Assembly: GCA_039919835.1 (NCBI GenBank)
Contig: JBDSEX010000033.1
Coordinates: 1-28,106, forward strand
Source of the DNA: Luteimonas sp.
Lineage (GTDB): Bacteria > Pseudomonadota > Gammaproteobacteria > Xanthomonadales > Xanthomonadaceae
Length of the DNA: 28,106 bases
Direction: 5' to 3'
Below are positions 3,295 to 21,370 of this stretch, piece by piece. Numbering within the stretch: the first letter of the stretch is position 1; every line of letters starts with the position of its first letter. Both the position numbers and the translations under genes were made by a program. The notes beneath the pieces were generated by a model. The model was not told the origin of the DNA and made no database searches. It saw only the letters and a program-made list of their open reading frames with translations.

Positions 3295-5378
3295 AGCACC
3301 GCGCTCTGGAAATCGAATTCCAGGTCGTCGCTTGCAACCTGCACCAGGTTGCCCTGGATGTAGTCGATGCCGCTCATCCACAGCGTAGCGGCCGCTTGCG
3401 GGTCTTCGATCTGGTGGCCGATGACCTGCAGGCCGAGCCGGTGCGCGCGATCGATGACTGCACGCATCTCATCGCGCAGCGCAGGCGAGGCTTGCGCTTC
3501 GGAATAGCGCGACGACAACCGCAGGTAGCCAAGCGGCAACTGCGCCAGCAGGGTCTGCGCTTCCTCGCTCTGTTCGTATTGGCTTAGGCAGAACTGCACG
3601 CCGGCGCCCATCAGGCGCTGGCAGAACTCGAGCAGGGTGACCGTGTGGATCAGCGCGTCGGACAGGCGCAGGTCGATGACCAGCGACGTGCCTTCGATGC
3701 GCTGGGTGGCGATGGCGTCCAGCAGCCATTCGGCGCTGGCCTGGCGCGACAGCGAACGCGGCGACTGCGACACGAACAGCCGCAGCGGCCGATGCTCCGC
3801 CCCGCGACGACGCAAGGTTGCCACGGCCTGCTCAAGCACCCAGTGGTCGAGCTCCTGCAGCAGCGCCGTATCTTCCAGCGCAGGCAGGAACTGGCCGGCC
3901 GACTGCAGCTGCCCATCCTCCGTTCGCAGGCGCAGCAGCGTCTGGTATTGCGCATCGTCGCCGCCGGCCACCGCGACGATGGGCTGGTATGCAAGTTCCA
4001 GCCGATCGTCCTTCAGCGCCTCGCGCACCACGTCGCCGAGGGCGGGATCGTCAGCCGCGCGGCGCTGCATCGGCGCCAACAGCTTCAACCCGGCCGGACT
4101 TTCGCGCGCGCCGCGCAGGGCGCTTTCCGCAGCGTCGAGCACCGCCCCGACATCGTCGAATCCGTGGCCTAGATCGACCGCGCCCACCGTCGCGCGCAGG
4201 CGGATTGCCTGTTCAGCGGTGCCAAGGGTGCAATCGGCCAAGCCGTCGCGCAAAGTCCGTGCGAAATCCTCGATCCGCGCCGATGCGAGTCCCGGCGCCA
4301 GTACCAGGAAAGCGCTGTCATTGAGCCGCGCGAACCCGGTGCGGCTTGCATCGAACGTTGGGGCCAGTGCGGCCAGTGCGGCCAGGCGCAGCCCGGCGCC
4401 GGCCATGATCTGTTCGTAGGAAGCATATCCGTAGCGTTCGCGCAGGCGCGCCGTGCCGGCAATTTCAATGAACAGCAGCGCGCCTGTCACCGTGGGTTGC
4501 AGCAGTTCCTCTGCAAGACGTGCGATCAGGAACGCGCGCGGCAGCAGGCCGGTTTCGGGCGAAGGCTGCGGCGCGAGCATCCGGCTCTGGCTGAGCTTGC
4601 GCGCACGCTGCACACGGCTCTGCACGGCGGCGACCAGATGCCGCGGCCGGATCGGCTTGTTGAGGAAGTCGTCGGCCCCGCCTGCCAGCACGTCGAACTG
4701 ACGGTCAGGGTCTGGATCTCCGGTCAGGAACACGATCGGCATGTGCAGGAACTGCTCATGCGCTCGTATCTGTTCGGTCATCGCAAGACCATCGAGTCCG
4801 GGGAGGTGCAGGTCCATCAGCACCAGGTCCGGATGGAAACGTTCCAGTGCGTCGATCACGCCGGACGATTCGCTCACGATCATCGTCTCCATTCCGGTGC
4901 CTTTCAGCACGCCCTCGGCGAACAGCGCCTGGCTGGGATCGTCTTCGACGATCAGGATGCGATAGGGATCCGTCGCCACGGTGGCACTCACGGCGCTGGC
5001 GATCGGCTTGGCACGGGCGGACGATCCATCCCCGGCGACCGCTGGCGACGTGTCGATCGAGGCAGGCGGGATGTGCCCGACCGGCCCATTCCCTGCCACT
5101 GCATCGCCCGCACCAGCAGTCCCTGCAACATCAGCCCCTGCAGCGTCAGCCCCTGCAGCATCAGCCCCTGCAGCATCAGCCCCAGCAGCATCAGCGCCTG
5201 CAGCATCAGCGCCCGGCGCATCGCCATGCCAGCGCCGCCAATACTGCGGCGGGGGCGCTTCGGCGCGGCGTGCGTAGCGGGTGACTTCGGGCGCGCCCGG
5301 GGCGTCTCCGGCCGCGATGCGGTCGTCGGTGCCGGGCGGTGCGGAGGTCGAGCGCGAATCGGGTCCGGTAGCGGACAT
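3291..5378 (-). CDS. REC-GGDEF-EAL response regulator with degenerate GGDEF and EAL motifs
   Basis: REC IVEDD…LMDLHLPGLDG…KP. GGDEF position reads NDSAF, EAL position reads QTLLR, and the DDFG loop is replaced by SQYE. SD AGGGGG precedes the ATG. Confidence 0.93.
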   Translation of the reverse strand: MSATGPDSRSTSAPPGTDDRIAAGDAPGAPEVTRYARRAEAPPPQYWRRWHGDAPGADAAGADAAGADAAGADAAGADAAGADVAGTAGAGDAVAGNGPVGHIPPASIDTSPAVAGDGSSARAKPIASAVSATVATDPYRILIVEDDPSQALFAEGVLKGTGMETMIVSESSGVIDALERFHPDLVLMDLHLPGLDGLAMTEQIRAHEQFLHMPIVFLTGDPDPDRQFDVLAGGADDFLNKPIRPRHLVAAVQSRVQRARKLSQSRMLAPQPSPETGLLPRAFLIARLAEELLQPTVTGALLFIEIAGTARLRERYGYASYEQIMAGAGLRLAALAALAPTFDASRTGFARLNDSAFLVLAPGLASARIEDFARTLRDGLADCTLGTAEQAIRLRATVGAVDLGHGFDDVGAVLDAAESALRGARESPAGLKLLAPMQRRAADDPALGDVVREALKDDRLELAYQPIVAVAGGDDAQYQTLLRLRTEDGQLQSAGQFLPALEDTALLQELDHWVLEQAVATLRRRGAEHRPLRLFVSQSPRSLSRQASAEWLLDAIATQRIEGTSLVIDLRLSDALIHTVTLLEFCQRLMGAGVQFCLSQYEQSEEAQTLLAQLPLGYLRLSSRYSEAQASPALRDEMRAVIDRAHRLGLQVIGHQIEDPQAAATLWMSGIDYIQGNLVQVASDDLEFDFQSAVL
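5121..5225. repeat. In-frame 15-bp tandem repeat (6 units plus 1 degenerate) encoding (ADAAG)n
   Basis: Units of CCCTGCAGCATCAGC and variants at 5121, 5136, 5151, 5166, 5181 and 5196, with a degenerate unit at 5211. Confidence 0.95.
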
Positions 5379-5487
5379 CAGCCCCCCTAGGCGATTTCCA
5401 CAGTATGCGCATGAGCGTTCATGCGCGCATGGTTCACAACGCGTCTCGCGCGGCGATCAGGCCACCTCGTGCGCGAGCGTGCTGCCT

Positions 5488-6075
5488 TCAACCCGTACCG
5501 GGCTGCGGCCGCGGTGCGCGGCGGAAGAGCTTGCGCCACAGCCACCATACGCCGAGCGCGAACAACAGGCTTACCGACACCACGATGCCGAGCCCGATCC
5601 ACGGATGCGAGAACGCCAATGCCAGCCCGCTGACCACGGCCACGTCTTCCGTCACCGACGCCGTCCAGTTGCTCACCGGCTCCGGTGACGTGTTCATCAG
5701 CGCGCGCGACCCGGATTTGAGCAGATGGCTGGTCAAGGCCACGCCCGCGCCTGTCGCGAGCACGCCGGCACCCAGCTCACCGTCGGGCGACATGGCCGCC
5801 GCTGCGAGGAATGCGCCCGCGGGCACGCGTAACAGGGTATGCAACAGGTCCCAGCCCGAATCCACGCCCGGTATCTTGTCGGCGAAGAATTCGGCGATCG
5901 CCAGCGCACCGGAAACGCCCAGCACCCATGGCGACTGCGTGACCTGCAGCGCCTGCGGAAGGTCGATCCAGCCGAACATCCCAGCCAGGCCGACTCCGAA
6001 CACCGTCAGGTACACGCGGATCCCCGCCAACCATGCGAGCAGCACGCCAATTGCGAACAGGTGGGCTTCGGACAC
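5488..6075 (-). CDS. DUF4126-like membrane protein
   Basis: Hydrophobic protein with GIRVYLTVF, EFFADKIPGVDSGWD and PEPVSNWTASVTED patterns recalled for DUF4126. SD AAGGA precedes the GTG. Confidence 0.8.
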   Translation of the reverse strand: MSEAHLFAIGVLLAWLAGIRVYLTVFGVGLAGMFGWIDLPQALQVTQSPWVLGVSGALAIAEFFADKIPGVDSGWDLLHTLLRVPAGAFLAAAAMSPDGELGAGVLATGAGVALTSHLLKSGSRALMNTSPEPVSNWTASVTEDVAVVSGLALAFSHPWIGLGIVVSVSLLFALGVWWLWRKLFRRAPRPQPGTG

Positions 6076-6251
6076 GGCGGATTCCTTGCATCGCGGCCGC
6101 GCTGGGCCGTACCTGGTGGAGTATAGGAAGCGATCGTCACGGTGCTGTAAAAAACCTGATCGTCATGCGACCTGCCCGACGCGTCCCGGCGGCGGGGCTC
6201 CCGGCCCGATCCGTACAATGCGTGTCCCGATACTTCAGGGTGCTGCAGCCG

Positions 6252-8598: not shown

Positions 8599-9510
8599 AT
8601 GGCCGCCACTCTCATCGCCGTAATCGTCGCGCTCGTCCTTGGGCATCTCGCGCAATCGCTGGCCGCGTCCGTTCGCCACTTCGCCTGGTACGGCAACTGG
8701 TTGCGCTGGCTCGATGCGCGATTCCCAGAGGGCAGCGTCTGGCGCGGACGCTACGGCATCGTGCTGGCGCTGGTGCCGCCGCTGGTGGTGGTGGGTTTGT
8801 TCCAGCTCGCGCTGCAGGAGCCACTGCTCGGGCTGGCAGGGTTGCTGCTCGGGGTCGTCGTGCTGTTCTACGCATGGGGACCCCGTGACCTGGATCTGGA
8901 TGTCGACGCGATCGTCGAAGCACGCGATCCGGTCGCGCGTCGCGATGCCGCAGCCAAACTCTGGCCCGGTGGCGAGGGCGTTTCGCTGGATGGCGCGAGC
9001 CTCGTCGATGCGGTCTTCCAAAACGGCCTGCGACGCTGGTTCGGAGTGCTGTTCTGGTTCCTACTGCTGGGGCCGTTCGGCGCATTGCTTTACCGCCTCG
9101 CGGCGCTCTCGGCGGAAGGCGAATTCGCACGCACCTTGCCCGCCGAAACCGCTGCCGGCGCGCGCACCCTGGTCGCCATGCTCGACTGGCCGGTGGCGCA
9201 GCTGATGACGCTTTCAATGGCACTCGTCGGCAACTTCGACACCGTCCTCGGCGCATGGCGCGACGCAGGCGGCACCGCATTCGGGCTGGATACCGCATTC
9301 CTTGCCGCTGCCGCGCGCGCCAGCGTCAAGAGCGAGCTGGCGGACGAAGCCATGGACTACGCCGAATCGGGTGTGGCCACCTCGACTGCCGTCGTCGCCT
9401 CAACCCCGGAGCTCCCCGAATTGCGCGACGCGATGAGCCTGGTCTGGCGCATCCTGCTGCTGTGGCTCGCGGTGATCGCACTGTTCGTCATCGCCGGCTG
9501 GGTGGCCTGA
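8599..9510 (+). CDS. AmpE/CobD-CbiB-like membrane protein
   Basis: Multi-TM protein with RRWFGVLFWFLLLGPFGALLYRL and LDWPVAQL, the pattern of the AmpE/CobD family. Confidence 0.75.
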   Translation: MAATLIAVIVALVLGHLAQSLAASVRHFAWYGNWLRWLDARFPEGSVWRGRYGIVLALVPPLVVVGLFQLALQEPLLGLAGLLLGVVVLFYAWGPRDLDLDVDAIVEARDPVARRDAAAKLWPGGEGVSLDGASLVDAVFQNGLRRWFGVLFWFLLLGPFGALLYRLAALSAEGEFARTLPAETAAGARTLVAMLDWPVAQLMTLSMALVGNFDTVLGAWRDAGGTAFGLDTAFLAAAARASVKSELADEAMDYAESGVATSTAVVASTPELPELRDAMSLVWRILLLWLAVIALFVIAGWVA

Positions 9511-9619
9511 CGTACCAGGTGCGTCCCCCTAGGCGACGAGAAGTTTTTTTCCGGTAACACCTGCAGGTCGACGTGCAGTGCCAAGGACAGCGCGCACTGC
9601 GAATGCACGCGACACAACA

Positions 9620-9647
9620 CATTGCCGGCCCCGGGGAGCCGGCAATG
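9620..9647 (-). terminator. Hairpin downstream of the small lipoprotein gene
   Basis: Perfect 10-bp stem CATTGCCGGC/GCCGGCAATG with an 8-nt loop, 13 bp after the stop. The U-tail is weak (TGTTGTGT). Confidence 0.5.
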
Positions 9648-9660
9648 CGCATCTTCCACC

Positions 9661-9810
9661 TTACGGATTGGGGCTGGGCCCAGGGCTCGGCGTACTCGGG
9701 CGCGGACAGTTGGACCCCGTGCATTCGTCGTCGCAACCCGCCAACGACAGCGCACCCAAAAGCAGGCCCAGTGTGATGACCCAACGGGCCTTGTTCCTGA
9801 TGGCATTCAT
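9661..9810 (-). CDS. 49-aa lipoprotein (MNAIRNKARWVITLGLLLGALSLAG-CDDECTGSNCPRPSTPSPGPSPNP)
   Basis: Basic n-region, hydrophobic h-region, lipobox LAGC; GGAG upstream of the ATG; downstream hairpin. Confidence 0.75.
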   Translation of the reverse strand: MNAIRNKARWVITLGLLLGALSLAGCDDECTGSNCPRPSTPSPGPSPNP

Positions 9811-10054
9811 GAGTGTCAGATCTCCATGTCTCGAATGGGCCGGCGCATCGACCGACAGTGCCACGGTAAGTGGCGATCACATGCTGGTGGGCGCCGCGAT
9901 AATAATCCGTGAATGTTCCAGGCCTTGCACAGTCGCCGCGTGCGATCCACCTGCAAGCTCACGCATCAATTTCAGGCGCCGTGACCGCCGCGCGTTCCAG
10001 GACCGCTCGATTGGGAACGGCGCAACAGATCCTTGATGTGTCTACCCGTGCTGA

Positions 10055-11968
10055 TCACACCGCGTCGCCACGCAACTCACGGACGTTCGCTTCCAACGAT
10101 TGTGATGTCGCCTCGCTGCCATCAACGGGCGCACCCGTTACAACCTCCACCTGCGCACGAAATCGCCGCGGAATGCGCATGCGGCCCGGTGTCCCGCTTT
10201 CAGGTTGCACGCTGCGGCGGCTCCACATGCTCGCCCACATCCCGCGCAGCGCCATCGGCACCACCGGCACGGGACGACCCGCCTCGCGCGCCCGCGCAAG
10301 GATCTTCTCGACCCCCGACTTGAACGGCGCGATCGCGCCATCGGCCGTCAGCCGCCCCTCCGGGAAAATGCCGATCAGTTCACCTTCCGCCAGCGCCGCA
10401 TCGATTTCGTCGAACGCGCGCTGCATCAGCGCCGGGTCCTCGCGCGCGCCCGCAATCGGGATCGCCCTGGCGGTGCGGAAGATCCAGCGCATCACCGGAA
10501 TGTTGAAGATCCGGTGGTACATCACGAACCGCACCGGCCGCGGGATCGCGCCTGCGAGGATCAATGCATCCATGTAGCTGACGTGGTTGCACACGAGCAG
10601 CGCCGGGCCCTCGTCTGGAACGTTGCGGATACCGTGGAGGCGCAGCCGGTACAGCGTCTTCACCAGCGCCCAGCTGAGGAATCGCATCAGGAATTCGGGG
10701 ACGAGCGCGAAGATCCACATCGCAACCAACGCATTGGCGATGGCGAGTGCAAGGAACACCTGTGGAATCGTCCAGCCGAAATAACGCTGCACGACGATGC
10801 CAAGCACCGCCGCAGTCACGATCAGTGCCGCGTTCTGGATGTTCATCGCGGCAATGACGCGCGAGATTTCGTTTTTCGGCGTTCGACCCTGGATCAGCGC
10901 GAACAACGGCACCACGAACAGCCCGGTGAAAAGTCCGATGCCGACCAGGTCCATGGCGATGCGCCAGCTTCCGGCTTGTTGCAGGAAGGCGCTGACATCC
11001 AGTCCGGTCTTCGTTGCAACACCGATGCGGGCAAAGTACAGGTCCAGCAGGAAGGCGCTGATTCCGAATGCCCCGAGCGGCACCAGTCCGATTTCCACCG
11101 TGCGCGCCGACAGCTTCTCGCACAACAGTGAACCCACGCCGGTGCCGATCGAGAACAGCGCCAGCGCGAGGATGTACAGCGTGTCGGTGCCACCGAGATT
11201 GATGTCGGCGTAGGTCGGCAGGTTGGCCGTGAGCACCGTGCCGATGAACCAGAACCATGAAACGCCCAGCATCGCGTTGCGCACTGCTGGCTGTTTTTTC
11301 GCGAGCCGCAACACGGCCAACGATTCGGGAACTGGATTCCAGTTGATCTTCAACTCCGGCGCACCGGGTTCCGCACGCGGGATCGCCCGGCTGACCAGGT
11401 TGCCGGTGATCGCCAGCATGACGATGGCAGTCGCGGCCACCACAGGCCCGTGCCCGCCGGCCAGCTTGAAGATCAATCCGCCAAACAGCATGCCGGTCAG
11501 GATCGAGATCGACGTGCCCATCTCGACCAGGCCGTTGCCACCGGTCAACTCTTCCGGTTTCAACACCGACGGGAGGATCGAATACTTCACGGGCCCGAAC
11601 AGCGCCGACTGCAGGCCTGTACAGAACAGTGCAACCAGCAGCACGATCATGTTCTGCGTCAGGAAGCCGACCGCGGCCAGCGACATGATCGCGATTTCCA
11701 TCGCGGTGGTGATGCGGATCAGCCGGGACTTCTCCAGCTTCTCCGCGATCTGGCCGGCGGTGGCGGAAAACAGGAAGTACGGGAGGATGAACAGTGCCGG
11801 CGCGAGGTTTGTGTACAGCGTGCGTTGCTCGGGACTGACGCCCAGATAGAACAACAGGCCGATGATGGCCTGCCGATAGACGTTGTCGTTGAACGCGCCG
11901 AGCGCCTGCGTGGCGAAGAACGGCAGGAAGCGGCGTTGCCGGAGCAACTCGAACTGGTTGTGGGCCAT
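10055..11968 (-). CDS. MFS lysophospholipid transporter fused to a PlsC-type acyltransferase (LplT/Aas-like)
   Basis: TQALGAFNDN, FGPVKYSILP and GNGLVEMGT in the MFS part; C-terminal NHVSYMD and IFPEG acyltransferase motifs. Confidence 0.92.
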   Translation of the reverse strand: MAHNQFELLRQRRFLPFFATQALGAFNDNVYRQAIIGLLFYLGVSPEQRTLYTNLAPALFILPYFLFSATAGQIAEKLEKSRLIRITTAMEIAIMSLAAVGFLTQNMIVLLVALFCTGLQSALFGPVKYSILPSVLKPEELTGGNGLVEMGTSISILTGMLFGGLIFKLAGGHGPVVAATAIVMLAITGNLVSRAIPRAEPGAPELKINWNPVPESLAVLRLAKKQPAVRNAMLGVSWFWFIGTVLTANLPTYADINLGGTDTLYILALALFSIGTGVGSLLCEKLSARTVEIGLVPLGAFGISAFLLDLYFARIGVATKTGLDVSAFLQQAGSWRIAMDLVGIGLFTGLFVVPLFALIQGRTPKNEISRVIAAMNIQNAALIVTAAVLGIVVQRYFGWTIPQVFLALAIANALVAMWIFALVPEFLMRFLSWALVKTLYRLRLHGIRNVPDEGPALLVCNHVSYMDALILAGAIPRPVRFVMYHRIFNIPVMRWIFRTARAIPIAGAREDPALMQRAFDEIDAALAEGELIGIFPEGRLTADGAIAPFKSGVEKILARAREAGRPVPVVPMALRGMWASMWSRRSVQPESGTPGRMRIPRRFRAQVEVVTGAPVDGSEATSQSLEANVRELRGDAV

Positions 11969-12153
11969 GAATCCCCCGGGATCAGCGCGGAGTGTAGCGA
12001 AGGAGTACTTCGTTCTCCCGTCGGACGACGTGCAGAAGGCGTATCGGGGCGTGAACCCTCAGATGGTCGTGTCCATGGCGAACTCTGCACGCGGAATCGT
12101 TACGCACTCTCCGTCGCTGCGCGCCACCGGCTCCTGGACGAGAAGGAAAAACA

Positions 12154-13440
12154 TCAAGCGTTTTCCCGCTCGATCGCCCGCCATCCGATGTCATGCCGAT
12201 GAAATTCCCCATGCCATGAAATTCCCGCCACTTCCGCATAGGCGCGGCGTTGCGCATCGACCACGGAGTCCCCCAGCGCGCACACGCACAGGACGCGGCC
12301 GCCGCTGGTGACCACATGGCCGCCTTCCACTGCGGTGCCGGCGTGGAAGACCTTGGTGCCTTCGACATCCGGTGCATCCCAGGCGTTGATGACATCACCG
12401 AGGCGCGGGATACCTGGATAGTTCGCCGCGGCCATCACCACGCCGAGCGACGGACGCGCATCCCACTGCGCCTGGACGTCGTGCAAGCGCTGGTCGATCG
12501 CGGCTTCGACAAGATCCAGCAGGTCCGACTGCAGGCGCAGCATCACCGGCTGCGTTTCCGGATCGCCGAAACGGACGTTGAATTCGATGACTTTGGGTGC
12601 GCCGTTGCCGTCGATCATCAATCCGGCATAGAGGAACCCGGTGAACGGCACGCCATCGGCGATCATGCCGCGCACGGTCGGCTGGATCACCTCGCGCATC
12701 ACCCGTGCATGCACGTCCGGGGTCACCACCGGCGCCGGTGAATACGCGCCCATGCCGCCGGTGTTTGGGCCGGTATCCCCGTCGCCGACGCGTTTGTGGT
12801 CCTGCGAGGTTGCCATCGGCAACGCGGTGGCGCCATCGACCATGCAGATGAAACTGGCTTCCTCGCCCTCGAGGAATTCCTCGATGACCACGCGCGCGCC
12901 CGCGGTGCCGAATGCATTGCCGGCGAGCATGTCGGTGATCGCCGCTTCGGCTTCGGGCAAGGTCATCGCCACGATCACGCCCTTGCCAGCGGCCAGGCCG
13001 TCGGCCTTGACGACGATCGGCGCGCCCTTGGCGCGCACGTAGGCAAGCGCGGCATCGACATCGGTATGTACGGCGTAATGCGCGGTCGGAATGGCGTGCC
13101 GCGCCAGGAAGTCCTTGGCGAACGCCTTGCTGCCTTCCAGCTGCGCGGCGGCCGCGGTGGGTCCGAAGATGCACCGGCCTTCGGCACGGAAGCAGTCAAC
13201 GATGCCGGCGACCAGAGGTTGTTCCGGTCCGACGACCGTCAGTGCCACGCCTTCGCGCTCCGCCAGCGCAAGCAAGCCATCGATGTCGACCGCACTGATG
13301 GCGACATTGCGGCATTTCGTTTCCGACGCCGTGCCCGCGTTGCCCGGCGCGACGATGATTTCATCGACACGCGGCGATTGCGCCAGCTTCCACGCCAGCG
13401 CGTGTTCGCGGCCACCGGAACCGATGACAAGAATTTTCAT
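12154..13440 (-). CDS. purD: Phosphoribosylamine-glycine ligase
   Basis: MKILVIGSGGREHALAW, VKADGLAAGKGV, QDHKR, NTGGMGAY and EFNVRFGDPE. Confidence 0.98.
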   Translation of the reverse strand: MKILVIGSGGREHALAWKLAQSPRVDEIIVAPGNAGTASETKCRNVAISAVDIDGLLALAEREGVALTVVGPEQPLVAGIVDCFRAEGRCIFGPTAAAAQLEGSKAFAKDFLARHAIPTAHYAVHTDVDAALAYVRAKGAPIVVKADGLAAGKGVIVAMTLPEAEAAITDMLAGNAFGTAGARVVIEEFLEGEEASFICMVDGATALPMATSQDHKRVGDGDTGPNTGGMGAYSPAPVVTPDVHARVMREVIQPTVRGMIADGVPFTGFLYAGLMIDGNGAPKVIEFNVRFGDPETQPVMLRLQSDLLDLVEAAIDQRLHDVQAQWDARPSLGVVMAAANYPGIPRLGDVINAWDAPDVEGTKVFHAGTAVEGGHVVTSGGRVLCVCALGDSVVDAQRRAYAEVAGISWHGEFHRHDIGWRAIERENA

Positions 13441-13524
13441 GGTGTCGAGCTCCCCCATTCGTCATCCAACCCAGCGCGGAGTGGTGAGCAGTCGCGCCCA
13501 CGCGTATCCACGGACGCTGGGCGA

Positions 13525-15096
13525 TCAATGCCGGAAATGCCGCACACCGGTAAACACCATCGCCATTCCATGCTCATCCGCGGACGCAACGACCTCGCTG
13601 TCCCGCATCGAGCCACCCGGCTGGATCACCGCCTTGATGCCAGCCGCTGCAGCGGCATCAATGCCGTCGCGGAACGGGAAGAAAGCGTCGCTGGCCATCA
13701 CCGAACCTTGCACCACCAGGCCGGCTTCTTCCGCCTTCATTCCTGCGATCTTCGCACTGACCACGCGGCTCATCTGGCCCGCGCCGATGCCGATGGTGCG
13801 CGAGTCCTTGGCATACACGATTGCATTGGACTTGACGTATTTCGCCACGCGCCAGGAAAACAGGAGATCGTTGACTTCGTCGCCGGACGGCGTTCGCCGG
13901 GTGACGACTTTCAAGTCATCACGCGTGACGATGCGATCGTCCGCAGTCTGCATCAACAGGCCGCAACCCACCCGCTTGGTGTCGAACCAGTTGCCACCGT
14001 CGCCGTGCGGGATACGCAGCACGCGTACGTTCGCCTTCCTTGCGCAGTATTCGAGTGCGCCGCCATCGAATTCCGGTGCGATCAGTACCTCGACGAACTG
14101 GCGATCGAGGATGGCTTTCGCCGTCGCTGCGTCCAGCCGCGCGTTGAACGCGAGGATGCCGCCGAAGGCCGAGGTCGGATCGGTCGCGTACGCAAGTTCA
14201 TACGCATCGCCGCACGCCGCTCCTTCGGCCACGCCGCAGGGATTGGCGTGCTTGACGATGACGCAGGCCGGCCGCGCGAACTGGCGCACGCATTCCCACG
14301 CGGCGTCGGCGTCGGCGAGGTTGTTGTAGCTGAGTTCCTTGCCCTGCAGCTGCGTAAACGTCGCAAGCGTTCCCGCGGACGGATACAAGTCGCGGTAGAA
14401 CGCCCCCTGCTGGTGCGGGTTTTCGCCGTAGCGCAGGTCCATGACCTTGGTGAAGTTGCCGTTCAACTGCGCCGGGAATGTCGCGCGTACGCCGTCATCG
14501 CCGATGGAGGAGAGGTAATCGCTTATGCAGGCGTCGTATCGCGCGACGCGGTTGAACGCGGCCACCGAGAGCGAGAAACGCGTTTTTGCCGACAGGGAGC
14601 CATCGTGTGCGGCGAGCTCTTCCAGCAGTGCGCCGTACTGCGATGGATCGGTGGCGACCGCGACGTGGGCGAAGTTTTTCGCTGCGGCACGCAGCATCGC
14701 CGGACCACCGATGTCGATGTTGTCGATGATGGTCTCGAAGGAATTTGCGGCGTCGGCCGAGACGCGCTCGAACGGATACAGGTTGAGCACAAGCAGGTCG
14801 ATGGGCTCGATGCCGTGCTCGGCCATCACCGCGTCGTCCGTGCCTGCTCGCCCGAGAAGTGCGCCGTGGATCCTGGGATGCAGCGTCTTGACGCGCCCGT
14901 CCATGATCTCCGGAAAGTCAGTGACCTCCGCCATCTCGGTCACATCGAGCCCCGCGTCGCGCAAGGCCCGTGCGCTGCCACCGGTAGACAGCAAGGCGAT
15001 GCCGCGGCCCGCCAGCGCATGCGCCAGCTCGACCAGACCGGTCTTGTCGGACACGGACAACAAGGCCCTGCGAATGGGCAGGCGGTCAGGGGTCAT
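13525..15096 (-). CDS. purH: Bifunctional AICAR transformylase / IMP cyclohydrolase
   Basis: [44 protein letters not shown] and GVRHFRH. Confidence 0.98.
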
Positions 15097-15721: not shown

Positions 15722-16570
15722 TCATCTGAAGTCGAAAGAAAACGAGACGGTGTCGGGAACGGGCTCCTCGATTTCGAGCGCGACGGCGGCGGTCTGGCCG
15801 GTGGCGATGAGTTTCTGCGTCGGCGCTCCGCCCAGGTACTCATTGGCGGTGAACGTGCGGCTGCCGGTCACGCGGCCACTGGCATCGGACAGCGTCAGCA
15901 CCAGTAGCGGCCAAGGCTGCGGCCAGCGCGCATCGTTGCGGAATGCCGCGCGGATGAGCAGGGCATCGGCAGTGGCGGGATGCGCGTGCACGTCGCGCGC
16001 AAGCATGGTGAATGCACCCACTTCGCGCCATGGCGGAATGTCGCAGCGCAGTGCGGCGCAGACGCTGAGGATCCTCGCGCGCCAGCGCGGATGCGCCGCG
16101 ATGGACGCGCGGTCAGCGACCATCAATTGCAACAGCAGCAACAGCAACAGACAGGCCGCCACCGGCCAAGGCCAGCGCGCGCGATGCGTTGCCGCTTCAG
16201 CTGCGACGCTGCGTCTGGCGAAGCTGGGATGCGCGCGCTTAGGCCGGTTTTGCGCTGCGGACGCGCGTTGTGGTGCTTGCGCGGGGGTGTTGTCCGTTGG
16301 GTGCGCATCTACTTCCGATCCGCCGTCGGAGGCGCGATCCTCGTCATCGACAGGGACATCGATGGCTGGCGCGGGAGAGTCCGTGGAGGCGGATGCCGGG
16401 ACGACGGTGTTGGCGAAGACGCCTTCCTGCAAGTCCAACTGCACGCCCGAGTCCATTTCTGTCGCACCACCGCCGATCGCGCCATCGCAATACGGGCAAA
16501 AATCCGGCGCTGCGTCCGTCACGGCGTCAACGGCGACCAGCGACTGGCAATGCGGACAGCTCACGAACAT
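15722..16570 (-). CDS. Zinc-ribbon plus DUF3426 domain protein
   Basis: N-terminal CPHC…CPYC, acidic linker, TM helix, C-terminal WPLLVLTLSDASG…FTANEYL; position between prmA and fis. Confidence 0.85.
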   Translation of the reverse strand: MFVSCPHCQSLVAVDAVTDAAPDFCPYCDGAIGGGATEMDSGVQLDLQEGVFANTVVPASASTDSPAPAIDVPVDDEDRASDGGSEVDAHPTDNTPAQAPQRASAAQNRPKRAHPSFARRSVAAEAATHRARWPWPVAACLLLLLLLQLMVADRASIAAHPRWRARILSVCAALRCDIPPWREVGAFTMLARDVHAHPATADALLIRAAFRNDARWPQPWPLLVLTLSDASGRVTGSRTFTANEYLGGAPTQKLIATGQTAAVALEIEEPVPDTVSFSFDFR

Positions 16571-16733: not shown

Positions 16734-17657
16734 TCATCGAGCATGACGAACACCCTCCATGCGCAGCCAGTCACCTTCCCGTGCAACCTCGAGCGCGTCG
16801 AAGAACGTGCCGTAACGCAGCAGCAATTCGTCTTCCTGCCCCTGGAGGATCCCGGACAGCGCGATGCGTCCGCCGGGTTGCACGCGCGACGCGAGTTTGT
16901 CGGCCAGCAGGTCCAGCGCGGACGCGAGTATGTTCGCCACGACGATGGGATAGGTCGCGGCGATTTCGTCGTCCGGCAGGAAAACATCGAGCAGCGCGCC
17001 GACCCCATTGCGCTGCGCGTTGTCGCGCGAGGCAAGCAACGCCTGAGGATCGGTGTCGACGCCAACCGCATGCGCGGCACCCAGTTTCAGCGCGGCCAGC
17101 GCGAGGATGCCGCTGCCGCAACCGAAGTCGAGCACGTCGCGTCCCTGCAGGGCGTCGGCCACCGCAAGCGCATCGAGCCATTGCAGGCAGAGCGCGGTGG
17201 TGGGATGCGTGCCGGAGCCGAACGCAAGCCCGGGATCGAGCCGCACGATGGCGGCGTCGGGCGTGTCGGCTTGCACCGGAAGCGCATGATTCCACGGCAC
17301 GATCCAGGTGCGTGCGCCGAAGCGCATGGGCGCGTACTGGTCCATCCACGCGCGTTCCCAGTCCTGGTCCTCGACCTGCCGGAAGCGTGCATGCGACCAG
17401 TCGAGCGTGGGATCGAAGGCGTCGAGTTCGGCCAGCAGCAGCAGCGCGTCCGCGTCGTGGGGGAACAACGCCGTTACCACCATCGCATCCCACAATGGCG
17501 TTTCCCCGACGCCCGGTTCGAGGATGGCGTGTTCGTTTGCGGTGTCGGCGTCGGCGTCGAGCAGCGTCACCGCCAGTGCGCCGACATCCTCCAGGGCATC
17601 CTGGTAACGCGGCTGCTCGGATTCGCGGCAGCGCAATGTGAGTTCAAGAAAGGGCAT
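16734..17657 (-). CDS. prmA: Ribosomal protein L11 methyltransferase
   Basis: [37 protein letters not shown] and LSGIL. Start placed at MPFLEL. Confidence 0.97.
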
Positions 17658-17777
17658 GCGGCAGATTAGCGCAACAGGTCGAGCCGGAGTCGATCGCAGC
17701 CCGTGGTGCGGGTAGGCGAAGTCGCGGTTGCAGAACCTTTGCTGCGGCGGACGGCATGTCCGCACGGGATCTGCGCC

Positions 17778-19757
17778 TTAGCGGGACGGCACCAGCGTCT
17801 GCACCGTGTAACTGACCGGCGCGGGGGCACCAGCGGCATGCAGGGTGGCTTTTCCCAGCCGCGGAGGTGCATTGGAGGTCAGCGAGAATGAATACAACAT
17901 GCCCCAACCGAGCGTCGTGGCGGGGGAAGCGGCATTGTTCCAGCGTACTGATCCGGCGCCCGGTACGAAGGTCCAGTCGTTGTTCGCATCGAGGTCGCCG
18001 TCGCGAAACACCGTGCCACTGCTCGCCGCGGAGGTGGCCAGCGAAAATCCGTCGAAGCCGCGCGTGCTGGTGATGCGCAGGTTGGGTTCGGCGCCGGTGG
18101 TTTCAGCGAACGCGAAATCGAAGTTCATGACCGCGTAGTGATAGCGCCACAGGTTGGGGCCGATCCGGTTTGCGCGCACCGCGACCTTGGCGTGCGCGCC
18201 ATTCACCACCAGCTCGCGGTTCATCGATGCCGCATCGAAGGACGGCACGTTGTCGTGCCCTCGGCGGGTTCCAGTGACGCCGACGACCTTCGGCGATGGT
18301 GCGACCCAGCGGTCGATGGCCGGCCCGAGCGTCTGCGTGTCGTAGCCGACCAACCACACGCTGCCGTTCCACGACTGCGTGGTGCGCACGGTCGCCATCG
18401 AGTTGTAGATGTTGATGTCCTGGCGCGCGAGGTACCAGGAATCCAGCAGCCACGACGTACCCGCTGCCGGCGTGATCTGTGACTCGTCCACGATCAGGCG
18501 CTGGTAGTAGTCGTCGGTCGCTGGCGACGCGTTGGCGACGCCGTCGCAGTTCGTATCGAAGGTCGACCCGCACCGGCCCCACTGCCCAGTCGCTGGCAGG
18601 ATTTCCCAGCGCGGCGAGAGCGCATTGTTGAAGTCGTTGTTACTGGTGGAATACGTGTCTTCGCAGCCGCGTCCGAGCACGTGTGAGTTGTAGTCGCCGC
18701 TGTCCAGGCATCCGCCGTTGGTGGTCAGGAAGGCCTGCTTGACGCCCGAGCGGCCGATCTGCTCGAAGCTGCCGTCTGCGTTGATCCGATACATGTTCCA
18801 GATCAGGTACGGATGCTGGTCGTTGTTGTACGGCGCGAAATTGCCACTGAACTTGCTGTACCAGGGAATGCTCGCGGCGTAGCGCGCGGTGCTGGTTCCA
18901 AGCGGGTCGCCGGGCACGGTCGCTGCGATGTTGCCTTCATTGACGTTGTTGCGCAGCGTCGAGGCAGGCGTGATCACCACGTCGCCGCTGCCATCGGTAC
19001 CCGTGCAGCCGTTGCAGCGCATGTACTGCGCGGTGATGCGCTGCATGAAGAGATCGTTCTGGTAGGTATCGCCGTTCGGTGCCGGGTCGCCGTGCCAGGT
19101 GATGGCGTTTGAGAGCGGCATCGCGCCGCTGCCCTTGGCGACGATGCCTGCATCGAACTGCACCTCGCCAATCGCCCATCCGGTCACCTCTGGCTGGCCG
19201 ATGCGCCGGGCCAGCGCCGCGCTGATGCGGATGTCGGACGTGCGCACCGCAATCCTGCTGTCGTGTTCGGTGAGTTCGTGCATGAGCCGATCGACGTGGA
19301 ACCAGGCAGTGCCGTCGGCGCCGATCAGATTGAACTGCTGCGTGTTCTGTCCCGATTTCGCCAGTCGCGGCACCAGGCGGAAGTCGGACAGCGCGATGCT
19401 GCCCTTGCCGAGGTCAAGCGAGTAACCGCCGCGAGCCCGCAACGCGCCACCGGTGAAGGCATGCAGGTATCCGCGTTTGACGTTGAAGCGCAACCTGGCG
19501 GCGCGGTCGAGGTTGAATCGCTCCCCGCCAGAGTGGGCGAGCCTGCTCGCGTTGCCGATGGTCGAAATCCGGATGCCGAGATCCGCCGCAAGGTCGTGGT
19601 TCCAGCGCACCACGACGCTGCCGCCGCTCGCGGCCCACGCACGCACTTCCTGCTGGGCTGCGAGCGGCGGCTTCGCAGGCGTCGTCATGGCCGCGTAGGC
19701 GGCGCCGAGAAGCAAAATGCTACTGGCCAGAGTCAACAGGCGTATCGGGTTCCGCAT
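17778..19757 (-). CDS. 659-aa secreted protein of unknown function, possibly with a remote lysyl-oxidase-like central domain
   Basis: Sec signal peptide (AYA|A), six Cys, long ORF co-directional with its neighbours. The domain call is inference (see findings). Confidence 0.85.
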   Translation of the reverse strand: MRNPIRLLTLASSILLLGAAYAAMTTPAKPPLAAQQEVRAWAASGGSVVVRWNHDLAADLGIRISTIGNASRLAHSGGERFNLDRAARLRFNVKRGYLHAFTGGALRARGGYSLDLGKGSIALSDFRLVPRLAKSGQNTQQFNLIGADGTAWFHVDRLMHELTEHDSRIAVRTSDIRISAALARRIGQPEVTGWAIGEVQFDAGIVAKGSGAMPLSNAITWHGDPAPNGDTYQNDLFMQRITAQYMRCNGCTGTDGSGDVVITPASTLRNNVNEGNIAATVPGDPLGTSTARYAASIPWYSKFSGNFAPYNNDQHPYLIWNMYRINADGSFEQIGRSGVKQAFLTTNGGCLDSGDYNSHVLGRGCEDTYSTSNNDFNNALSPRWEILPATGQWGRCGSTFDTNCDGVANASPATDDYYQRLIVDESQITPAAGTSWLLDSWYLARQDINIYNSMATVRTTQSWNGSVWLVGYDTQTLGPAIDRWVAPSPKVVGVTGTRRGHDNVPSFDAASMNRELVVNGAHAKVAVRANRIGPNLWRYHYAVMNFDFAFAETTGAEPNLRITSTRGFDGFSLATSAASSGTVFRDGDLDANNDWTFVPGAGSVRWNNAASPATTLGWGMLYSFSLTSNAPPRLGKATLHAAGAPAPVSYTVQTLVPSR

Positions 19758-20002
19758 GGCAATGCCTGCTTTGGAGTGTGCGCTGATGGCGCAAGATTAA
19801 CGGTATCTGCGACACGCGCGGGTAAACGCCGAGGCCCGATGCGGATTCAGCCTGATGAAGGCCGCTGCCCCTCGCGGTCACCCGGCGCGCGCCTGCGATT
19901 TTCGCCCCGGCAAATCCATTGCGAGCATTGCCACACCACTTGTCCCTTCGAAGTACGCCTATATGGCGCGACGTGGGGCGTGCCCACGGCCAGGAAAGTA
20001 CA

Positions 20003-21370
<1,368 letters not shown>

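Follow-up and report, generated by a model that had tools for sequence, protein, structure and literature searches.

What kind of protein is encoded by the gene that lies between accC and prmA in Luteimonas sp.? The question is raised by a stretch of 28,106 nucleotides from contig JBDSEX010000033.1 (the whole of which we call the window), where a complete gene of 659 codons plus stop, established from the open reading frame (ORF) list and its translation, occupies positions 17778-19757 on the minus strand. A preliminary description of this DNA, made from its letters alone, had noticed histidine, lysine and tyrosine residues arranged as in lysyl oxidase (LOX) and proposed a divergent LOX-fold family, a proposal that is supported by the fold match and by the conservation of H315, K340, Y369 and position 341 reported below. 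The reading we favour, with confidence just short of balanced, is that of a secreted, very divergent enzyme of the LOX superfamily, which would have kept the Lys-Tyr cofactor pair, would have a rebuilt or different redox site and in some lineages would be coupled to multiheme cytochromes.

The whole protein was modelled with template-free AlphaFold2 (predicted local distance difference test, pLDDT, 92.1; predicted template modelling score, pTM, 0.90) and appears as three domains; its central part, residues 188-497, was also modelled alone (pLDDT 89.7). When this central domain was compared with known structures by Foldseek, human LOXL2 (5ZE3) was the top and sole significant match in the PDB (E 1.2e-4, prob 1.00). 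Among the Swiss-Prot AlphaFold models, the first 24 matches are without exception catalytic domains of LOX or LOXL1-4; in AlphaFold DB, the leading clusters are those of the family itself, and LOX homologues come next. In the ESM Atlas, a bacterial cluster of PF01186, the Pfam family of LOX, matches the central domain at a TM score of 0.51 over 201 residues. Most of these comparisons pit one predicted structure against another. With the whole protein as query, LOXL2 was not listed by Foldseek, the N-terminal domain dominating the search, and the central domain folded alone was used instead. The central domain (residues ~231-484, positions 18306-19067, minus strand) is predicted to have the fold of a LOX catalytic domain: its model matches LOXL2 and LOX as the preliminary description had led one to expect, the PF01186 profile itself remaining unmatched. 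Of the AlphaFold DB relatives, one bears the automatic name 'Amine oxidase', a second includes a fused cytochrome c domain, and MAM, dockerin or TPR modules occur in others.

The residues that had first drawn attention were read directly in the DNA and stand as described. H315 is encoded by CAT at 18813-18815, K340 by AAG at 18738-18740, Q341 by CAG at 18735-18737 and Y369 by TAT at 18651-18653; the motifs follow in the order NDQHPYLIWNMYR (H315), SGVKQAF (K340), GCEDTY (Y369) and then RLIVDESQ...QDINIYNSMA, with spacings of 25 from H to K and 29 from K to Y, again as claimed. The range of 18340-18860, to which these residues had been assigned, spans residues 300-473. When 67 full-length homologues (28-64% identity to the query) were aligned, just 13 of 659 columns proved invariant (W299, P309, H315, P316, S337, K340, C365, Y369, N374, G478, N545, W595 and G619). 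H315, K340 and Y369, picked without sight of any homologue, are all invariant, the chance of which is roughly (13/659)^3, or ~8e-6. Since all three belong to the 13 invariant columns, they rank among the most constrained residues of the protein.

The neighbourhood of these residues is conserved as well. The guess that homologues would have histidine at position 341 came true in 65 of the 67 sequences. Gln341, found here next to K340 (the candidate cofactor lysine, judged by its conservation and its alignment with the bacterial LOX lysine; K340-Q341, 18735-18740, minus strand), is common to the closest relatives of the window protein, and K-Q and K-H forms alternate among close relatives; Gln341 is a real variant, not a sequencing error. 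The segment C365-E-D367-T-Y369 (18651-18665, minus strand) combines an invariant Cys four residues ahead of the tyrosine, a near-invariant Asp (D367, kept in 66 of 67) and an invariant Tyr, the candidate quinone tyrosine. C350, ten residues after K340 (18708-18710, minus strand), is kept in 61 of 67. Thirty members from Planctomycetota retain H-P, K-H, G-C-x-D-x-Y, N374 and P-R-x-E, and K340 is invariant in these 30 as in the 67.

How do these residues relate to those of true lysyl oxidases? Bacterial LOX sequences were fetched by a degenerate DNA pattern for GHEHWHF, four of them being verified on PF01186, and 17 diverse bacterial LOX catalytic domains were aligned for profile-profile comparison with hhalign. 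The best alignment was identical in every run and is co-linear. It places D313-Q-H315 on H-E-H of the copper motif GHEHWHF, so that D313 corresponds to the first histidine, H315 to the second and Y317 to the third; a Y-R strand on the Y-R/Y-x-L strand of LOX; R-S-G-x-K340 on R-S-G-K (SGKEAFCL in bacterial LOX), where the lysine of the cofactor lysine tyrosylquinone (LTQ) resides; G-C-x-D-x-Y369 on G-[SW]-G-D-T-Y (GSGDTY or GWGDTY), which holds the LTQ tyrosine; and an Asn-rich strand near residue 450 on the N-N strand of LOX. Offsets within the structural alignment ranges put H315 and K340 at most one residue from H628 and K653 of LOXL2 and from H288 and K314 of mouse LOX. Ahead of the tyrosine there is a deletion of 6-7 residues relative to LOX, which the preliminary description had also seen. 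In LOXL2, C663 (K653+10) is disulfide-bonded to C685 (Y689-4), fixing the strand that carries Y689, and the two cofactor precursor residues lie 16.6 Å apart in the precursor crystal (PMC5899467). C350 at K+10 and C365 at Y-4 reproduce the spacing of that disulfide, making C350 a putative disulfide partner. By this register, K340 and Y369 would occupy the positions of the LTQ precursor lysine and tyrosine (K320 and Y355 in LOX, K653 and Y689 in LOXL2).

One might suspect that the family is unrelated to LOX and resembles it through convergence or because structure prediction has misled. We consider this scarcely credible. The matches are specific to LOX (the top 24 in Swiss-Prot, the sole significant one in the PDB, the bacterial LOX cluster at TM 0.51), and they, like the co-linear match of four separate motifs and two cysteine spacings, are hard to obtain by chance.

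These observations are consistent with the following mechanism. After its signal peptide, the secreted protein would consist of three domains, HtaA-like, LOX-like and Ig-like. K340 and Y369 would be the pair that cross-links into LTQ in lysyl oxidase; the Asp close by and the two cysteines on either side are kept, and two of the three copper 'talon' histidines are lost. A metal or redox site would be rebuilt with H315, D367 and residue 341 (Gln here, mostly His in the family) at its centre. The protein would most likely act outside the cytoplasm as a quinone-type oxidoreductase on an amine-like substrate. In many relatives, an adjacent pentaheme c-type cytochrome would probably receive its electrons or bring about its maturation, and the copy in the window would be a solitary, laterally inserted K-Q variant. 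The analysis shows the gene, its family, their conservation, the match in fold and the cytochrome genes near relatives; the residue-for-residue equivalence with LOX, the formation of a quinone, the redox activity, the metal and the substrate are what we infer.

The link to cytochromes comes from gene neighbourhoods, which were sampled in 20 genomes (20-kb stretches from 19 genomes of the same order and one Rubrivivax contig). In 8 of the 20, a family gene lies 3-600 bp from a gene for a protein of 610-690 residues with exactly five CXXCH motifs, and the family members adjoining it are all of the K-H type. The pentaheme protein gives weak Pfam matches to Cytochrome_C7 and paired-CXXCH models, and its language-model neighbours in the Atlas fall into multiheme clusters of the MtrC/MtrF type. 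Its genes are located at 4216-6126 in the Dokdonella koreensis stretch (L001) and, in the other stretches, at L142:8811-10679, L143:5782-7722 and 11953-13902, L147:9270-11345, L154:10863-12701, L159:7005-8951 and 9004-10851, and L160:9815-11875. These 610-690-residue proteins form an uncharacterised secreted family, often found inside tandem arrays with LOX-like genes.

In four of the cytochrome-adjacent genomes, the cluster also holds a lipoprotein of 204 residues and a protein of ~400 residues (L001:6734-7927, L143:14618-16168, L144:10826-12181, L159:11616-12836). The latter is secreted and Cys-rich and has an invariant T-H-W-H-H-N-Y-W motif. PF01179 (copper amine oxidase) is present in its Atlas neighbours, and three of four homologues match this model below threshold. 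Because PDB searches with the 397-residue neighbour, by sequence and by profile, returned no match, the likeness to copper amine oxidases is a lead, not a finding. If it holds, one operon would contain two different quinone-oxidase-like proteins.

Coupling to the pentaheme protein is proposed by analogy with quinoprotein dehydrogenases, whose cofactor matures by heme proteins or passes electrons to them (PMC11951088). Position 159, in the HtaA-like N-terminal domain, is His or Met in 60 of 67 members, which leaves room, speculatively, for an internal heme or metal site. A bolder version of the proposal, which we hold to be unlikely, makes the family the first LTQ-type quinoprotein without a copper talon, its quinone being matured and/or re-oxidised via heme, either in the HtaA-like domain (His/Met159) or in the MtrC-like pentaheme cytochrome; such an extracellular 'LTQ dehydrogenase' would work in electron-transfer chains and not as an O2-consuming oxidase.

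The talon histidines are H292, H294 and H296 in human LOX and H626, H628 and H630 in LOXL2. Here the copper motif reads N-D-Q-H-P-Y, as it does in the family consensus, and the third talon position is Phe or Tyr in the family. H315 is its sole histidine, in agreement with the earlier remark that a single His of the copper triad is present. Copper in LOX is bound by the three histidines of an HxHxH hairpin and is needed for the formation of LTQ (PMC5899467, PMC4448552, PMC11951088). Because only H315 of the triad remains, the family lacks a defining trait of the LOX family proper, yet it resembles LOX in fold and cofactor residues.

Several results tell against a LOX-superfamily enzyme with cytochrome coupling and have to be weighed together. 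Two of the three histidines of the HxHxH talon are missing; of the remnant D313-Q314-H315 (18813-18821, minus strand), H315 is invariant, and D313 is retained by the Pseudomonadota set but not by Planctomycetota. The window protein has Gln in place of the family's His341 and is devoid of C355. PF01186 gives no match at E <= 10 for the whole protein and none in the 67 family members, the same profile scoring 30-53 bits with the four fetched bacterial LOX proteins that served as its control. The profile of the family compared with the 17 bacterial LOX domains is not significant (hhalign Prob 0.27%, E 0.22), nor is it after widening with 30 planctomycete members (P 0.098). Since profile-profile comparison is not significant, sequence statistics do not by themselves establish homology with LOX. 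As regards the cytochromes, a search of the window's 69%-complete genome turned up no pentaheme partner, and none stands beside the window gene; in 12 of the 20 sampled relatives no cytochrome adjoins the family gene. CXXCH is absent from 357 family proteins and from 31 planctomycete ORFs, and a general fusion of the family to cytochromes was rejected on this ground.

The loss of the copper triad, which LTQ self-processing requires, gives room to a quite different explanation: a secreted hydrolase, lyase or transferase, acting for example on a polymer, that has a LOX-like fold but makes no quinone at all and uses H315, K340, D367, Y369, R383 and E385 simply for acid-base catalysis or binding. 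The numerous conserved Trp, Arg, Asp, Glu and Asn residues around the core would suit such chemistry, the galactose-binding-like, dockerin, PPC and fn3 modules of relatives are typical of secreted degradative enzymes, and most family genes are without a nearby redox partner. On the other hand, it is precisely the Lys and the Tyr that stand, absolutely invariant, at the positions of the LOX cofactor; the cysteines flanking them and the D-x-Y aspartate are kept too, the recurrent pentaheme neighbour points to a redox function, and no match in fold or profile to a hydrolase or lyase active site was found. We regard this explanation as rather unlikely.

It could also be argued that the family is an LTQ amine oxidase of the usual kind, dependent on copper and using O2, whose copper site has been rebuilt from H315, His/Gln341, D367 and, in this clade, H357/H359, and that the cytochrome genes lie nearby by coincidence. 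The family shares with LOX the conservation of K, Y and D-x-Y, histidines 315 and 341 are conserved across phyla, the automatic name of one AlphaFold DB relative mentioned above fits, and prokaryotic LOX are active amine oxidases of relaxed specificity (PMC6452851). However, Gln341 in the window protein and its nearest relatives makes a strict role as copper ligand doubtful there, the loss of D313 in Planctomycetota speaks against the site, and no copper chaperone or other copper-related gene was seen in the neighbourhood. In our view, such an oxidase is improbable.

Within the window's order, 128 of 201 genomes have the domain, and paralogues often form tandem arrays there; it occurs in only 1 of 25 genomes of the window's own family and in 3 of 300 genomes sampled across its class. 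Outside the phylum, 59 of 301 Planctomycetota genomes possess it, some with 8 or more copies, combined there with galactose-binding-like, dockerin, PPC, P-domain and fn3 modules; longer members from Pseudomonadota add Ig-like, cadherin-like, BACON or FG-GAP domains. These extensions, together with paralogue arrays resembling expansions of surface proteins and with the lost copper site, would agree with a non-catalytic surface or binding protein, be it an inactive LOX relative or an adhesin-like module. The invariant polar residues (H, K, Y, S, N, D, R, E), densely clustered and preserved over 28-64% identity and across phyla, look like an active site, not a scaffold, and we judge this alternative very unlikely.

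The copy in the window is solitary. That it stands alone between core genes is borne out by the flanking ORFs and spacers: accC is at 20003-21370 and prmA at 16737-17657, separated from the 659-codon gene by ~245 bp and ~120 bp, respectively. Of 24 genomes from the window's family (loci L163-L185), 15 have accC and prmA no more than 1.5 kb apart; the gap (positions 17658-20002 in the window) measures 5-201 bp in 11 of these relatives and 0.4-1 kb in 4, and in the other 9 genomes the two genes are parted by at least 1.5 kb of other DNA. A LOX-like gene at this junction was found in none of the 24 genomes, only in the window. Since the junction is variable and the relatives have no such gene there, the window copy is a lineage-specific insertion. 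The base composition is not deviant.

The remaining features of the gene, all on the minus strand, complete the picture. A Sec-type signal peptide (residues 1-23, 19689-19757) has a hydrophobic core followed by AYA ahead of the predicted cleavage site; in the whole-protein model, residues 4-23 form a helix, which is followed by a linker of low confidence. Because homologue alignments begin at residue 4, the ATG at 19757 is preferred as start codon over the internal Met24. The database gene call begins at Met24, which cuts off the signal peptide. The N-terminal beta-sandwich (residues ~38-209, 19131-19646) is predicted to have the fold of the heme-binding 'CR' domain of HtaA, HtaB and ChtA, and the C-terminal one (residues ~505-659, 17781-18245) is Ig-like, with invariant residues of its own (N545, W595 and G619). 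Upstream of the gene are accB-accC, and downstream follow prmA, a zinc-ribbon protein, fis and purH. A search of the gene's surroundings revealed neither promoter-like nor terminator-like sites. The ORF of 282 residues downstream of prmA (15722-16570, minus strand) has an N-terminus resembling a zinc ribbon (CxxC...CxxC), a low-complexity linker and a hydrophobic segment.

The family is without a model in Pfam and NCBIfam, and its annotation is 'hypothetical protein' only. That name is borne by all of more than 700 homologue clusters at 90% identity (from Luteimonas, Dokdonella, Rubrivivax and many metagenomes); in a library clustered at 50% identity, the family counts 1041 representatives. 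For the 659-residue protein, Pfam gave nothing useful (best MdcG_N, E 0.1, and FG-GAP_3, E 6), NCBIfam no match, and searches of the PDB by sequence and by profile just chance matches. A search for remoter relatives with a profile of the domain returned mostly fragments of the same family, and one with a LOX profile only close actinobacterial LOX. In the library of papers searched, we found no description of this family, nor of any LOX-like family that is copper-less or cytochrome-linked.

Compared with LOX and LOXL2 (PF01186, 5ZE3), the family is alike in the predicted central fold, Lys and Tyr at the LTQ positions, the Asp of D-x-Y, cysteines at K+10 and Y-4, an Asn-rich strand close to where the domain ends, and secretion. 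It differs by the lack of a PF01186 match, ~10% identity, one instead of three copper histidines, a gap from K to Y shorter by 6-7 residues and an extra conserved His after the Lys; moreover, HtaA-like and Ig-like domains flank it, whereas LOX and LOXL are flanked by a propeptide or SRCR domains. Prokaryotic LOX (of Streptomyces and other Actinomycetota, and HTU-LOX of Haloterrigena turkmenica) are also secreted, with the LOX domain C-terminal or central, and their RSGKEAF and G[SW]GDTY parallel RSGVK[H/Q]AF and GC.DTY of the family. Unlike the family, they keep the full HxHxH (GHEHWHF) and reach the PF01186 scores given above, and the activity of HTU-LOX depends on Cu2+ (PMC6452851). A search for PF01186 in the genome of the window and in 401 genomes of Pseudomonadota gave no match. 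The actinobacterial LOX (L003-L122) are mostly 570-850 residues long, the LOX domain being their last ~150 residues and the long N-terminal region almost without Pfam assignment; a short form of ~290 residues occurs in Jiangellaceae-type metagenome-assembled genomes (L010, L057, L118).

Other quinoproteins offer likeness of a different kind. Methylamine dehydrogenase, with its tryptophan tryptophylquinone (TTQ) and MauG, and quinohemoprotein amine dehydrogenase, with cysteine tryptophylquinone (CTQ), unite a protein-derived quinone with co-encoded c-type heme proteins, to which the pentaheme neighbour in 8 of 20 genomes may be compared; in these systems heme proteins, rather than copper and O2, mature the cofactor or take the electrons (PMC11951088). 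Their folds and cofactor residues (Trp/Cys) are unrelated and the window copy has no cytochrome neighbour, so the analogy is one of working, not of membership. Copper amine oxidases (PF01179) share with LOX a three-histidine copper site, and they have a tyrosine-derived quinone (topaquinone, TPQ) and oxidise amines; their fold is another one and their cofactor arises from a single residue, without cross-link to Lys.

What would the finding mean? To our knowledge, no structure of a mature LOX exists. Lysyl oxidases are the only enzymes known to have LTQ, which is believed to form only with copper bound by three histidines (PMC11951088, PMC5899467). With the cofactor residues kept and the copper site gone, the family either makes the quinone in another way or shows a role of the Lys and Tyr without a quinone, and either outcome bears on how LOX cofactors form. 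Expression should be less difficult with these soluble bacterial proteins than with LOX from animals. If the link to multiheme cytochromes in some lineages is real, it would introduce a new type of enzyme into extracellular electron transfer, and this large unannotated bacterial family may represent a new kind of quinone redox enzyme.

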